Below are positions 1 through 42,999 of a stretch of DNA of 64,000 nt, in pieces (within the stretch, counting starts at the first letter, position 1; the number at the start of each line of letters is the position of its first letter). The notes beneath the pieces are model-generated. The model searched no databases. It worked only from the letters and a program-made list of their open reading frames with translations, and was not told the DNA's origin. Origin of the DNA: Escherichia coli. Its GTDB lineage: Bacteria > Pseudomonadota > Gammaproteobacteria > Enterobacterales > Enterobacteriaceae. A program made the position numbers and the translations under genes. The stretch lies in assembly GCF_003018255.1 (NCBI RefSeq), contig NZ_CP027440.1; one strand, 5' to 3'.

Positions 1-277
<277 letters not shown>

Positions 278-455
278 TTACAAATCTCTGCCTGAGTCCA
301 GAAAGGCTTAATGCATCAGCAGCATTCCTCGCCTGTTTGCAACCGCGTAAGGTCATTCATCTGCATATGTGCTGCAACAATCTGGCGAGCAGACAAGCAC
401 ACTCCCATGAGACGCAGCGCGCGTTATTCTACGTGAAAACGGATTAAACGGCAGG

Positions 456-2396
456 TTAAACCGAGTATCTTTGTGAATATTTTTTCACGTTAGTATCAAG
501 TGGCTGTGAGGACGCGAAAAAATCCCCTTGCCCACCTGTAACACCGCGCTGAATCAGGGTCTGCCACTCGCTTCGCGAACGCACGCCGGTGGCGTAAACC
601 TGGGTGCTGGTCCCGGAGCAGGCTTCCACCAGGCTTTGAACCAGCAGCTGATTCTCCGTTCGCTTCTCAATGTTTCTGACCAGCCCCGGATGGAGCTTGA
701 GTAACTCAACATTAAGTTCTTTGATCCAACTGGTGCTTACCAGCGTCAAACCAGCCTGGTTGACGGCTACCCGTACCCCTAAAGCATTCACTAAACGAAT
801 AACAGGTTGTAAGCGACTGATATGTTGACCAACATCGGCCTCTGCAAGTTCAATAATTATGCGTCTTCGTTGCGATTTTTCACATTGCATTAACGTATCG
901 CGCAGCCAACGCTGAAAACGCGGGCGAATCAGCGACTCAACGGTAACCTGAATCGCCAGATTTTCCTCTGGCCAGTAACGCAATAGTGGAATAAGACGGC
1001 TGATTAGCAGGCGGTCATACTCTTCCGATAAACCAAACTGCAAGACCATCGGCATATACTCTGCCGAGCTAACCTCTTCATTACCATCGAAGATGCGGCA
1101 CATGAGTTCACGATGATGAACCCGGCCTTCGCGAGTAACCGCCGGTTTTTGATAAAGGCGCGGGCCGCCGCGACTGAGCATTTGCTCGATAAGCGTACGC
1201 CAGCGAACATTACCGCGTCCTTTTTCAGGCAACGAGTCATCGTAAATAGCCCAGCTATTGCCGCCCTGCAATCCCGCATTACGCGTGGCAGACTCTGCAT
1301 GTTCCATTACCTGCTCGGTATCCTGACCACTACGCCAGGCACAGATACCAATGTGGATCATATCGTCGCGATCGAGCATTTTATTGTTCGGCAAGGTATC
1401 GACGGCTTTGATTAACTGACTGGCGATGCTCTCTGCCTCTTTTAACGTCCGGTGCGGTAACAGCGCAGCAAAATCACTGCGGTGGTAACGCGCCAGCAGT
1501 GCGCCAGGGTAGCGCATCATAAATGTCGATAGCAGATTCGTCAGAGAGAAGAACTGTTCTTCAACCTGGCTGTGCCCCCAGGTATCACTCAACATATTGA
1601 AATCCGGCAGACGAATCATCATCACGATCCCGTGGGTACCTACTTTCTCTTGATCTTCCAGTAACGTTGCTAACTGATTATCGAAAAAGAGTCGGTTATT
1701 GAGGCCGGTTTTCATGTCCTGGGCGGCATAAGAGCGGATCAGCGTATCAAGACGGCTGTGTTGTTCGCGTGCGTTCTGAATTTCACAAAGCAGCGTATCC
1801 AGCGCACTGCTGGTTCTGGGCGGCCATTCATAGATGGTTCCCAACACATTAGAGCCACGCTCACCGTTTAAGATACGAGTAGCCCGGGTTTCCAGCAATT
1901 CTTGCCCGGCAAGTTGCCGTTGTAACCAGCGTACCGCCAGGAAGAGCATAAGAATGATAAAGCCAATCGCCCCCGTGAGCGGCGCGGTAGTCATTAAAGA
2001 ATGGAAATAGTTGCCCATCGGATCCTGATAAACCAGACGCAGCGACATCCCCGGATGCTTTATCAACGGAACGCTCAGTTCACGAAACAGATCGTTGGTG
2101 CCAACCGGACGATAACTACCATTTCTGGCCAGGGTATAAACCTGCTTATCACCATGGAGCAGGTCTACACGAACGATATCTGCCGACATCATTAATTCGG
2201 TAATTTGTGGCCTTAATGTGCTGAAGTCATTCGACACTAGGTGGGTATCAATCGCCGTCGCCACCGCCTGAACACGATGACTAAACTTATACTGAATGGC
2301 GTTGTAGAAACTTAGCGAACAGCCCAGCAAAGTCACAAAAATTGTTAACCCGGTGAGCAGCGTGACAAAGGCCGAAAATTTCGTCGTTAATCTCAT
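456..2396 (-). CDS. csrD: CsrD (YhdA), membrane GGDEF/EAL-like regulator of CsrB/CsrC sRNA turnover
   Basis: 646-aa ORF; N-terminal hydrophobic segments; degenerate GGDEF motif reads HRSDF; recognised from translation. Confidence 0.93.
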   Translation of the reverse strand: MRLTTKFSAFVTLLTGLTIFVTLLGCSLSFYNAIQYKFSHRVQAVATAIDTHLVSNDFSTLRPQITELMMSADIVRVDLLHGDKQVYTLARNGSYRPVGTNDLFRELSVPLIKHPGMSLRLVYQDPMGNYFHSLMTTAPLTGAIGFIILMLFLAVRWLQRQLAGQELLETRATRILNGERGSNVLGTIYEWPPRTSSALDTLLCEIQNAREQHSRLDTLIRSYAAQDMKTGLNNRLFFDNQLATLLEDQEKVGTHGIVMMIRLPDFNMLSDTWGHSQVEEQFFSLTNLLSTFMMRYPGALLARYHRSDFAALLPHRTLKEAESIASQLIKAVDTLPNNKMLDRDDMIHIGICAWRSGQDTEQVMEHAESATRNAGLQGGNSWAIYDDSLPEKGRGNVRWRTLIEQMLSRGGPRLYQKPAVTREGRVHHRELMCRIFDGNEEVSSAEYMPMVLQFGLSEEYDRLLISRLIPLLRYWPEENLAIQVTVESLIRPRFQRWLRDTLMQCEKSQRRRIIIELAEADVGQHISRLQPVIRLVNALGVRVAVNQAGLTLVSTSWIKELNVELLKLHPGLVRNIEKRTENQLLVQSLVEACSGTSTQVYATGVRSRSEWQTLIQRGVTGGQGDFFASSQPLDTNVKKYSQRYSV

Positions 2397-2547
2397 CCTT
2401 GTGTTAACTCCGATAGTGAGGAAGCGGGCATACTAGCAAATCAGATTTATCTCGCAATTTATTGCGCTTCATCGGCTTTGCTTTTCCATTAGCGAGTATA
2501 GTCTTCAGAAATTATTTTCCAATCCATCATGCACATGAGGACCACTT

Positions 2548-3522
2548 ATGCAGGCGTTACTTTTAGAACAGCAGGACGGCAAAACTCTCGCATCAGTACA
2601 GACTCTGGACGAAAGTCGCCTGCCGGAAGGCGATGTCACGGTTGATGTTCACTGGTCGAGCCTGAACTACAAAGATGCGCTGGCGATTACCGGTAAGGGA
2701 AAAATCATCCGAAATTTTCCGATGATTCCTGGGATTGATTTTGCCGGAACTGTACGCACCAGCGAAGATCCGCGTTTTCATGCCGGTCAGGAGGTGTTAC
2801 TCACTGGCTGGGGCGTTGGTGAAAACCACTGGGGTGGGCTGGCGGAACAGGCGCGAGTGAAAGGTGACTGGCTGGTTGCCATGCCGCAAGGGCTGGACGC
2901 GCGTAAAGCAATGATTATCGGTACTGCCGGTTTTACCGCCATGCTGTGTGTGATGGCGCTGGAAGATGCCGGTGTTCGCCCGCAGGATGGGGAGGTTGTC
3001 GTGACGGGTGCCAGTGGTGGCGTCGGCAGTACCGCCGTCACGCTGCTGCATAAGTTGGGTTATCAGGTCGTTGCCGTTTCCGGTCGCGAAAGTACCCATG
3101 AATATCTGAAAAGTTTAGGTGCCAGCCGTATTCTTCCTCGCGATGAGTTTGCTGAATCCCGTCCTCTGGAAAAACAAGTCTGGGCTGGGGCAATTGACAC
3201 CGTTGGCGACAAAGTGCTGGCAAAAGTGCTGGCGCAAATGAATTACGGCGGCTGCGTGGCGGCCTGTGGTCTGGCGGGTGGTTTTACTCTGCCAACCACG
3301 GTCATGCCATTTATTCTGCGTAATGTCCGTTTGCAAGGGGTGGATTCAGTAATGACGCCACCAGCACGCCGCGCACAAGCCTGGCAGCGACTGGTCGCCG
3401 ATTTACCGGAATCATTCTATACCCAAGCGGCAAAAGAGATATCTCTGGCAGAGGCACCGAAGTTTGCCGAGGCCATCATTAATAACCAGATCCAGGGTCG
3501 CACGCTGGTGAAGGTTAACTAA
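2548..3522 (+). CDS. acuI: Acrylyl-CoA reductase AcuI (YhdH), MDR-family NADPH oxidoreductase
   Basis: 324-aa ORF; Rossmann motif VVTGASGGVGS; recognised from translation. Confidence 0.93.
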   Translation: MQALLLEQQDGKTLASVQTLDESRLPEGDVTVDVHWSSLNYKDALAITGKGKIIRNFPMIPGIDFAGTVRTSEDPRFHAGQEVLLTGWGVGENHWGGLAEQARVKGDWLVAMPQGLDARKAMIIGTAGFTAMLCVMALEDAGVRPQDGEVVVTGASGGVGSTAVTLLHKLGYQVVAVSGRESTHEYLKSLGASRILPRDEFAESRPLEKQVWAGAIDTVGDKVLAKVLAQMNYGGCVAACGLAGGFTLPTTVMPFILRNVRLQGVDSVMTPPARRAQAWQRLVADLPESFYTQAAKEISLAEAPKFAEAIINNQIQGRTLVKVN

Positions 3523-4189
3523 CCATTTAGCAGGGAATAATAAGAGAGGGAACTCATTTTGAAATCATTATTCAATCGGTTAACGGGAAAAGCGGTTAGC
3601 CGGACAGCTTTCGTCGAACATCTTGGTCATGAAGTTGTACAACATCATCCAAACTGGAAAGTCATGATTTCGACTGACCATAAATTGATGCGCATTGATG
3701 CTCCACCAAACAGCCATTATTGATACGCCTCCGTCGCCTGTTAGGTTTATGGTGTTTTGCCTTGGCGACGCTACGCTTAATCTGTTACTGATTTCTGGTA
3801 CCATGGGGGGAATAATCTGATTTTATTTGATTGCAAATTAACCACTTAAACCTATTGAATGCGGAACATTGTCAGTCGGTTAATTTTGCGTGCTTTAGCA
3901 TTCACATCTTTCCGGACGATGCAGTGAAAATTGCGTAATCCTCAGCAACCGCTGCGTAATGTCGTCTATCTTGTCGCGATCCTGGCATCCCTACATTATT
4001 TGTGGTCTGTGAAGATTATCTCATTGCAGCCCCTCATCTTCGCAGGGCTGGCTTTACAGCTTTTCACCCTACGTTATAAGAAGTTCCGTCGATGATGGCG
4101 CTAATTTCGTGAATTGTGCGGCTTGTTGCAAATTACACGGTGTTGAAGGTTATTTACATGTTAGCTGTTGATTATCTTCCCTGATAAGA

Positions 4190-4499
4190 CCAGTATTTAG
4201 CTGCCAATTGCTACGAAATCGTTATAATGTGCGACCTCGTCCTCCCTGACGCAGTTTTTGCGCTGCGGAAAAGGTGACATTGGCGCAACGAAGGTATATT
4301 TTGTTTTTTGCCGGAGGATAGCAGCAGATCGCTGCACAATGTCCGTCAAGTCTAACATTGACACTCTGGGGCAAAATAGACCGGCGTCCCGGCCTGCTGG
4401 AATTTATCGCTATGCATACAGCTGTCGGGGCATACGCTTTACAGACGGCGGTGAAACGCCTGTCACAATCACACTAAACAAAGAGTACGGAACCCACTC
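4190..4499 (+). promoter_or_regulatory. Putative accBC promoter and long untranslated leader
   Basis: Perfect TATAAT at 4223-4228 about 270 nt upstream of accB ATG; accBC is known to have a long leader; -35 not convincingly identified. Confidence 0.3.
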
Positions 4500-21500: not shown

Positions 21501-22259
21501 ATGAGCCAAATTTTACTGCAACCTGCTAACGCGATGATTACGCTGGAAAACGTCAATAAATGGTATGGGCAATTCCATGTTTTGAAAAATATAAATTTAA
21601 CCGTGCAACCGGGAGAACGGATCGTTCTGTGTGGCCCTTCTGGTTCCGGTAAATCGACAACCATTCGTTGTATTAATCATCTGGAAGAACATCAACAGGG
21701 ACGGATCGTGGTGGATGGCATCGAACTTAATGAAGATATCCGCAATATTGAGCGCGTCAGGCAGGAAGTGGGAATGGTCTTTCAGCATTTCAATCTCTTC
21801 CCTCATCTGACCGTTCTACAGAACTGTACCCTGGCACCGATTTGGGTACGCAAGATGCCTAAGAAAGAGGCTGAAGATCTGGCGTTGCATTACCTTGAGC
21901 GGGTGAGAATTGCCGAACATGCCCAGAAGTTTCCCGGACAGATTTCTGGTGGTCAGCAGCAACGCGTTGCCATTGCGCGTTCGCTGTGTATGAAGCCGAA
22001 AATTATGTTATTTGATGAGCCAACGTCGGCGCTCGATCCTGAGATGGTGAAAGAGGTGCTGGATACGATGATTGGGCTGGCGCAGTCGGGTATGACAATG
22101 CTGTGTGTAACACATGAGATGGGGTTTGCACGAACCGTCGCTGACAGGGTGATTTTTATGGATCGTGGGGAGATAGTGGAACAAGCTGCACCGGATGAGT
22201 TTTTTGCGCATCCTAAATCAGAGCGTACGAGGGCATTTTTATCGCAGGTGATCCATTAA
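21501..22259 (+). CDS. yhdZ: Amino-acid ABC transporter ATP-binding protein
   Basis: 252-aa ORF; Walker [13 protein letters not shown] signature SGGQQQRV. Confidence 0.95.
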
Positions 22260-22278
22260 TTGAATGTTAGTTCGAAAA

Positions 22279-22307
22279 GCAAAAAGGCCATCCTTTCGGA
22301 TGGCCTT
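22279..22307. terminator. Bidirectional hairpin terminator ending rrnD (minus) and yhdZ (plus)
   Basis: GGCCATCC-TTTC-GGATGGCC flanked by an A-run upstream and T-rich sequence downstream; positions checked against an ORF frame. Confidence 0.8.
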
Positions 22308-22319
22308 TCGCTTGATTTG

Positions 22320-22439
22320 ATGTCTGGCAGTTCCCTACTCTCGCATGGGGAGACCCCACACTACCATCGGCGCTACGGCGTTTCACTTCTGAGTTCGGCA
22401 TGGGGTCAGGTGGGACCACCGCGCTACTGCCGCCAGACA
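22320..22439 (-). rRNA. rrfF: 5S rRNA, distal copy of rrnD
   Basis: 120-nt match to E. coli 5S on reverse complement; coordinates checked against an overlapping ORF frame. Confidence 0.97.
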
Positions 22440-22476
22440 AATTCTTTTCTAATCTGCCGAACTTTAACCTAAAAAG

Positions 22477-22552
22477 TGGTGCTGATACCCAGAGTCGAAC
22501 TGGGGACCTCACCCTTACCAAGGGTGCGCTCTACCAACTGAGCCATATCAGC
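22477..22552 (-). tRNA. thrV: tRNA-Thr
   Basis: 76-nt reverse-complement match to GCTGATATGGCTCAGTTGGTAGAGCGCACCCTTGGTAAGGGTGAGGTCCCCAGTTCGACTCTGGGTATCAGCACCA. Confidence 0.97.
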
Positions 22553-22564
22553 ACGCTAAATTTG

Positions 22565-22684
22565 ATGCCTGGCAGTTCCCTACTCTCGCATGGGGAGACC
22601 CCACACTACCATCGGCGCTACGGCGTTTCACTTCTGAGTTCGGCATGGGGTCAGGTGGGACCACCGCGCTAAGGCCGCCAGGCA
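22565..22684 (-). rRNA. rrfD: 5S rRNA, proximal copy of rrnD
   Basis: 120-nt match to E. coli 5S on reverse complement. Confidence 0.97.
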
Positions 22685-22781
22685 AATTCTGTTTTATCAA
22701 CACGTCTCGTTATGACATGTCGATTTAATCTGTATCAGGCTGAAAATCTTCTCTCATCCGCCAAAACATCTTCGGCGTTGT

Positions 22782-25686
<2,905 letters not shown>

Positions 25687-25860
25687 TCACAACCCGAAGA
25701 TGTTTCACTTCAGAGTTGCGAAAATTTGAGAGACTCACGAACAACTTTCGTTGTTCAGTGTTTCAATTTTCAGCTTGATCCAGATTTTTAAAGAGCAAAA
25801 CTTCGCAGTGAACCTTTGCAGGTACACTCTGAAGTATTTTTTATTTAATCACTACAGAGA

Positions 25861-25936
25861 TGGTGGAGCTATGCGGGATCGAACCGCAGACCTCCTGCGT
25901 GCAAAGCAGGCGCTCTCCCAGCTGAGCTATAGCCCC
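25861..25936 (-). tRNA. alaU: tRNA-Ala (UGC), spacer tRNA
   Basis: 76-nt reverse-complement match to tRNA-Ala-UGC; coordinates checked against an overlapping ORF frame. Confidence 0.97.
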
Positions 25937-25978
25937 ATAACATGTAGTTAAAACCTCTTCAAATTTGCCGTGCAAATT

Positions 25979-26055
<77 letters not shown>

Positions 26056-26123
26056 GTAGAGGTTTTACTGCTCATTTTCATCAGACAATCTGTGTGAGCA
26101 CTGCAAAGTACGCTTCTTTAAGG

Positions 26124-27665
<1,542 letters not shown>

Positions 27666-41016: not shown

Positions 41017-42999
<1,983 letters not shown>

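Follow-up and report, generated by a model that had tools for sequence, protein, structure and literature searches.

Identification of csrD in the window

The stretch of DNA analysed here (the window, 64 kb in length) is ordinary E. coli core chromosome that extends from mreB through the ribosomal protein operons. Positions 456-2396 hold a single open reading frame of 646 aa, complete with ATG and stop codon, on the minus strand; read on the plus strand, this interval is riddled with stop codons. The coordinates and the protein length proposed in an earlier reading of the letters alone (the sequence-only reading) were exact, and the strand, which had not been given, can be added to them. The features of the locus, in window coordinates, are as follows.

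456..2396, minus strand: csrD coding sequence, 646 aa, ATG at 2396-2394, stop codon included at 456-458 (list of open reading frames and translation)
2397..2547, minus strand: csrD 5′ leader and promoter region, common to the divergent acuI (reading of the sequence)
2310..2378, minus strand: predicted transmembrane helix 1, approximately aa 7-29 (Kyte-Doolittle 19-residue windows above 1.6 at aa 6-31)
2007..2297, minus strand: GAPES4 periplasmic sensor domain, aa 34-130 (Pfam PF17157, E = 2.4e-36, profile positions 2-98 of 98)
1923..1997, minus strand: predicted transmembrane helix 2, approximately aa 134-158 (Kyte-Doolittle windows above 1.6 at aa 133-159)
1257..1727, minus strand: degenerate GGDEF domain, aa 224-380 (Pfam PF00990, E = 6.3e-33, profile positions 1-160 of 161)
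1470..1484, minus strand: HRSDF at the position of the GG(D/E)EF active site, aa 305-309 (alignment to active cyclases)
513..1190, minus strand: degenerate EAL domain, aa 403-628 (Pfam PF00563, E = 1.9e-38, profile positions 4-234 of 236)
1095..1109, minus strand: ELMCR at the position of the EAL / ExLxR motif, aa 430-434 (alignment to active phosphodiesterases)

The protein was recognised by the NCBIfam equivalog model NF008281 (RNase E specificity factor CsrD) with a score of 974.5 bits against a cutoff of 663 (E = 2e-293), the alignment spanning positions 1-632 of the 633 in the model. The next-best NCBIfam family, LapD, scored 169 bits against its own cutoff of 1020. Identical DNA is annotated as csrD in RefSeq, and the annotated neighbours in the records of strain JNE23-011 and of K-12 give the gene order mreB-csrD-acuI; the K-12 record reads mreC, mreB, csrD (b3252), yhdH/acuI, the yrdF/yrdE pseudogenes and accB. 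The name csrD, which the gene had received from the sequence-only reading, is thus borne out by family score, annotation and synteny. When complete E. coli genomes were searched, the initial 3600 bases of the window were matched in 5425 of 5426, with csrD, acuI and mreB annotated there, and csrD alone was matched over at least 80% of the gene, again in 5425 of the 5426.

Domain architecture

The Pfam scan and the hydrophobicity profile together revealed the architecture typical of CsrD, i.e., transmembrane segment, GAPES4, transmembrane segment, GGDEF and EAL. The GAPES4 domain lies between the two hydrophobic segments (approximately aa 7-29 and 134-158), in line with the literature, in which CsrD is described as residing in the inner membrane (PMC5027483; PMC9276943). 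In the predicted layout, a transmembrane helix, the periplasmic GAPES4 domain, a second transmembrane helix, a linker, the GGDEF domain and the EAL domain would follow one another in a protein anchored in the inner membrane.

The GGDEF domain

HRSDF occurs once in the protein, at aa 305-309, and is encoded by CACCGCAGTGATTTT at window positions 1470-1484 of the minus strand. In phmmer alignments to solved diguanylate cyclases, the CsrD segment “laRYhrsdFaallP” was placed over “vaRYGGEEFsviLa”, “aaRYGGEEFamifP” and “laRYGGEEFvlllP”. We also used for comparison five active enzymes taken from the K-12 genome (NC_000913), the cyclases DosC and DgcZ and, for the EAL domain, DosP, PdeH and PdeK. DosC and DgcZ share the Pfam GGDEF domain with CsrD, can be aligned to it over the full domain length, and keep an intact GG(D/E)EF that CsrD is without. 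In a MAFFT alignment, HRSDF occupied the identical five columns as GGDEF of DosC (aa 374) and GGEEF of DgcZ (aa 206). By these alignments HRSDF is in the homologous A-site position and is more than a string match, and an intact GG(D/E)EF A-site is absent from CsrD by comparison with DosC, DgcZ and the PDB cyclases. That HRSDF stands in place of GG(D/E)EF was the central observation of the sequence-only reading, and it holds in each of these alignments.

The strand that contacts metal and substrate is altered as well. In place of IDVDKFKEIND (DosC) or LDIDRFKLVND (DgcZ), CsrD has IRLPDFNMLSD; relative to DosC, the changes are D to R262, D to P264, K to N267 and N to S270. From the structures of PleD and WspR, we take the Asp residues of this strand to bind metal and its Lys and Asn to contact the substrate. 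Some GGDEF domains carry in addition an inhibitory RxxD motif five residues upstream of the A-site, which is optional and is used by some degenerate receptors too. No RxxD I-site was found in the ungapped register of CsrD, where YPGA stands opposite RSSD of DosC.

HRSDF was invariant in the seven E. coli alleles compared. The Ser-Asp pair of the motif has been reported to be conserved across Enterobacterales, and the HRSDF motif of CsrD is named explicitly in a 2026 review (PMC12910134).

The EAL domain

The top matches in a PDB search with the isolated EAL domain were LapD and FimX. Since these are themselves degenerate receptors, active E. coli K-12 enzymes were chosen for the motif alignment, and the EAL domain was aligned to the phosphodiesterases DosP, PdeH and PdeK, which share the Pfam EAL domain with CsrD and can be aligned to it over the full domain length. 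CsrD has ELMCR where DosP has EALAR, and ELAE (E516 and E519) where DosP has EITE. Residues E430, R434, E516, E519, K567 and Q623 are kept. Those lost are the central Leu of the EAL motif (M432), the Asn (Q483), both Asp residues of DDFGTG, which reads NQAGLT at aa 546-551 (N546 and Q547), the Asp of KxD, which reads K567-L-H569, and both Glu residues of EGVE, which reads T603-G-V-R606. DosP, PdeH and PdeK keep E(A/L/V)L, the Asn, DDFG(T/M)G and EGVE, and CsrD is without them. Because the Asn, the Asp pair, the Asp of KxD and the Glu positions of EGVE are replaced, most divalent-metal ligands are gone. The replaced positions of the two domains serve as metal ligands or general base in active enzymes (RocR, TBD1265 and BlrP1 for EAL; PleD and WspR for GGDEF).

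CsrD thus lacks the complete residue set of an EAL phosphodiesterase. The complete ExLxR of receptors of the LapD/FimX type is absent too, since CsrD has E-L-M-C-R with Met in place of Leu; ELMCR was invariant in the seven E. coli alleles compared. The domain scan and the alignment to active enzymes, which the sequence-only reading had proposed as a check, accordingly found both domains and degenerate catalytic positions in both. The loss of the EAL motif (ELM) and of most metal-binding residues, by which the second domain is degenerate too, is an addition to that reading.

Could some diguanylate cyclase or phosphodiesterase activity, even if weak, be retained despite the altered motifs? Both domains are full length by Pfam, and several catalytic residues of EAL persist, as listed above. 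Against this, many catalytic positions are replaced: in the GGDEF domain, both Gly and the first acidic residue of the A-site motif, together with the two Asp, the Lys and the Asn of the DxD strand; in the EAL domain, the Asn, the Asp pair of DDFGTG, the KxD Asp and the two Glu of EGVE. Synthesis and hydrolysis of c-di-GMP have also been reported absent (PMC5027483). We consider residual activity exceedingly improbable.

Another reading of the same residues is that CsrD is a c-di-GMP receptor that uses its degenerate EAL domain as do LapD, FimX and CsrD of Erwinia amylovora, so that c-di-GMP would modulate CsrB/C decay. Like CsrD, LapD (of Pseudomonas fluorescens) and FimX combine inactive GGDEF and EAL domains that serve signalling and not catalysis, and they are the best sequence matches in the PDB (3pjw, E = 3.6e-33, for LapD and 4j40, E = 5.7e-21, for FimX); in addition, E430 and R434 of ExLxR as well as Q623 are kept in CsrD. 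LapD and FimX bind c-di-GMP through EAL, and what they govern is a periplasmic protease or the assembly of pili, whereas the output of E. coli CsrD is sRNA decay, and the LapD equivalog score (169 bits) stays far below its cutoff (1020). A further precedent is the orthologous CsrD of Erwinia amylovora, which shares the TM-GAPES4-TM-GGDEF-EAL architecture, a degenerate A-site (FRSDF) and csrB regulation via RNase E, and binds c-di-GMP via its EAL motif with a Kd of ~4 uM (PMC9276943, Kharadi and Sundin 2022). However, the Erwinia protein keeps the Leu of ExLxR (EIL), and its L435M substitution abolishes binding; E. coli CsrD has Met, Met432 in the window protein, and binding of c-di-GMP to purified K-12 CsrD was undetectable (PMC9276943). 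E. coli CsrD also seems to mediate no response to c-di-GMP (PMC5027483). A receptor role for the window protein is therefore very unlikely in our estimate.

Allelic variation and selection

The window protein and K-12 CsrD (YhdA, b3252) are the same in length (646 aa), in HRSDF and ELMCR, in layout and in their neighbours mreB and acuI. Alignment of the full-length proteins gave 635 identical residues out of 646 (98.3%) with no gaps and no frameshift relative to the K-12 reference. The gene differs from K-12 csrD at 38 bases, which fall in 26 synonymous and 11 non-synonymous codons. The resulting residue differences from K-12 CsrD, the protein on which the published experiments were done (V60T, S100T, S101N, V149L, R204C, V228M, T284S, G326S, Q425R, Q464L and K511R), are conservative or lineage-typical, and all lie off the motif positions. 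We considered whether they mark an unusual allele and rejected this: each is also present in at least one other sampled E. coli lineage, and they are therefore ordinary polymorphisms.

Compared with six other E. coli alleles, csrD of the window has a Nei-Gojobori dN/dS of 0.03-0.15 (about 0.1) and is under purifying selection. The sequence-only reading had recorded the gene as intact, and the K-12 length, the gapless alignment and these ratios agree with it.

Loss of catalytic motifs could superficially suggest that csrD is a decaying relic, a pseudogene in the making that is functionless now, and at least one natural strain (873.10) has an IS66 insertion in the gene. Yet the frame in the window is uninterrupted and full length, dN/dS is low, 5425 of the 5426 complete genomes contain a near-full-length match, the degenerate motifs are themselves kept across alleles, and csrD has a phenotype on CsrB/C stability (PMC5027483). 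The evidence on conservation and selection already refutes gene decay, to which we assign a practically negligible probability.

No base distinguishes csrD of the window from that of E. coli strain 200164, whose protein is WP_001241447.1. The protein of strain JNE23-011, WP_456285085.1, was considered as the same protein, this strain being the top BLAST hit with a printed identity of 100.0%, and was rejected, as one base differs at window position 1558. The base-by-base check showed that this position, in csrD codon 280, gives E280 in the window and G280 in JNE23-011, and this single-base difference accounts for the newly issued accession of the latter; WP_001241447.1, the allele of the window, is the older accession of the two.

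A natural disruption of csrD was seen in E. coli O18ac:H14 strain 873.10 (NZ_CP061754.1, locus 1-4262), where tnpA, tnpB and tnpC of an IS66-family element lie inside the 5′ part of the gene. In RefSeq, a csrD CDS (WP_191111777.1) is still annotated for the 3′ remainder, whereas a pseudogene is given for the 5′ piece. In one further genome among the 5426, csrD was not matched at all.

The csrD 5′ leader

A comparison of 157 nt over the 5′ leader (window 2391-2547) showed no difference from K-12. The start codon lies within ACACAAGGAUGA. On the minus strand, one GGA at 2396-2398 overlaps the start codon, and a second GGA lies within the Shine-Dalgarno sequence (cGGAGtt) in the region 2396-2412. 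Judged by the CsrA consensus, these two motifs resemble CsrA-binding motifs. As putative CsrA sites they would fit the modest repression of csrD by CsrA that has been reported (PMC5027483).

The surroundings of csrD were also scanned with promoter and terminator consensus elements, and hits were no more numerous than in shuffled sequence. A lone promoter-like match was found in the leader at 2522-2495; since the number of hits did not exceed that in the shuffles, a csrD promoter is not claimed.

Other features of the window

A fragment between acuI and accB (3708-4095, plus strand) is annotated in RefSeq as a 5′-truncated pseudogene of the “sulfoxide reductase heme-binding subunit YedZ” type. 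K-12 has the pseudogenes yrdF and yrdE at this site, and the fragment looks like a relic conserved across strains. A complete rRNA operon is present at 22322-27665 on the minus strand. It comprises 16S, tRNA-Ile, tRNA-Ala, 23S, 5S, tRNA-Thr and another 5S, in the rrnD-type order that is expected at this position. The spacer just upstream of 23S contains a match to the Rfam family StyR-44 (25694-25793), and the alpha-operon leader (Alpha_RBS) was found at 41341-41452.

Compared with JNE23-011 (NZ_AP045067.1), the window has a single mismatch up to 10.8 kb and three between 28 and 50 kb. In contrast, approximately 170 mismatches are spread over yhdJ-acrS-acrEF-yhdWXYZ (10.8-22 kb; ~10800-22300), a pattern of base differences which suggests a recombination mosaic. 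The high mismatch counts at 22-26 kb are probably due to an alignment offset in the rRNA operon.

Function of CsrD

E. coli CsrD is known to be without critical catalytic residues, with no apparent synthesis of, hydrolysis of or response to c-di-GMP (PMC5027483, Vakulskas et al. 2016), and it is listed as the degenerate GGDEF-EAL protein of E. coli (PMC5635695, Sarenko et al. 2017). CsrD is no nuclease itself; turnover of CsrB/C requires RNase E and PNPase, and csrD genetics show an effect on the stability of both RNAs (PMC5027483). [quoted passage not shown] The sequence-only reading had described CsrD as a c-di-GMP-independent factor that targets CsrB and CsrC for decay, in agreement with the literature on E. 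coli (PMC5027483; PMC9276943). The current model goes beyond “targeting” of the RNA: controlled by EIIA-Glc, CsrD overcomes the protection that CsrA gives to the RNase E site (PMC5027483). Independence of c-di-GMP is valid for E. coli and not for every orthologue, since Erwinia amylovora CsrD binds the dinucleotide.

The identity of the gene, its intactness, its domain layout, the degeneracy of its catalytic positions and the purifying selection acting on it are established by the present analysis. We conclude that positions 456-2396 are almost certainly the chromosomal csrD (yhdA) gene of E. coli, intact and functional, and that its product is a regulatory adaptor in which both nucleotide-cyclase-related domains are catalytically dead. 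No feature of the sequence speaks against this. CsrD would neither make nor break c-di-GMP, because of the HRSDF A-site, the strand that lost its Asp, Lys and Asn, the missing I-site and the degenerate EAL domain. As an adaptor, it would let RNase E cleave CsrA-protected CsrB and CsrC when unphosphorylated EIIA-Glc binds its EAL domain. Judging by the 98.3% identity to K-12 CsrD, the allele of the window should likewise be required for RNase E-dependent, EIIA-Glc-activated decay of CsrB and CsrC.

The CsrD GGDEF domain was found to contact the GGDEF domain of DgcT in a two-hybrid assay (PMC5635695). One can imagine that the degenerate A-site is a working contact surface for RNA, for the CsrA-CsrB complex or for a partner such as the DgcT GGDEF domain, and that lineage substitutions, for example R204C (in the linker after the second transmembrane helix) or Q464L (in the EAL domain), might tune the response. 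We regard this as a speculative idea that is more likely wrong than right by a good margin, and nothing in the window specifically favours such a reading of HRSDF.

The csrD copy described here is already known and adds nothing to the published record; the sequence-only reading, too, had recorded it as an intact csrD and not as a novelty. The result serves only as a quality check, in that a known degenerate GGDEF-EAL regulator is recognisable from raw sequence. CsrD itself is biologically important because glucose transport is linked, through sRNA decay, to the Csr global regulon.
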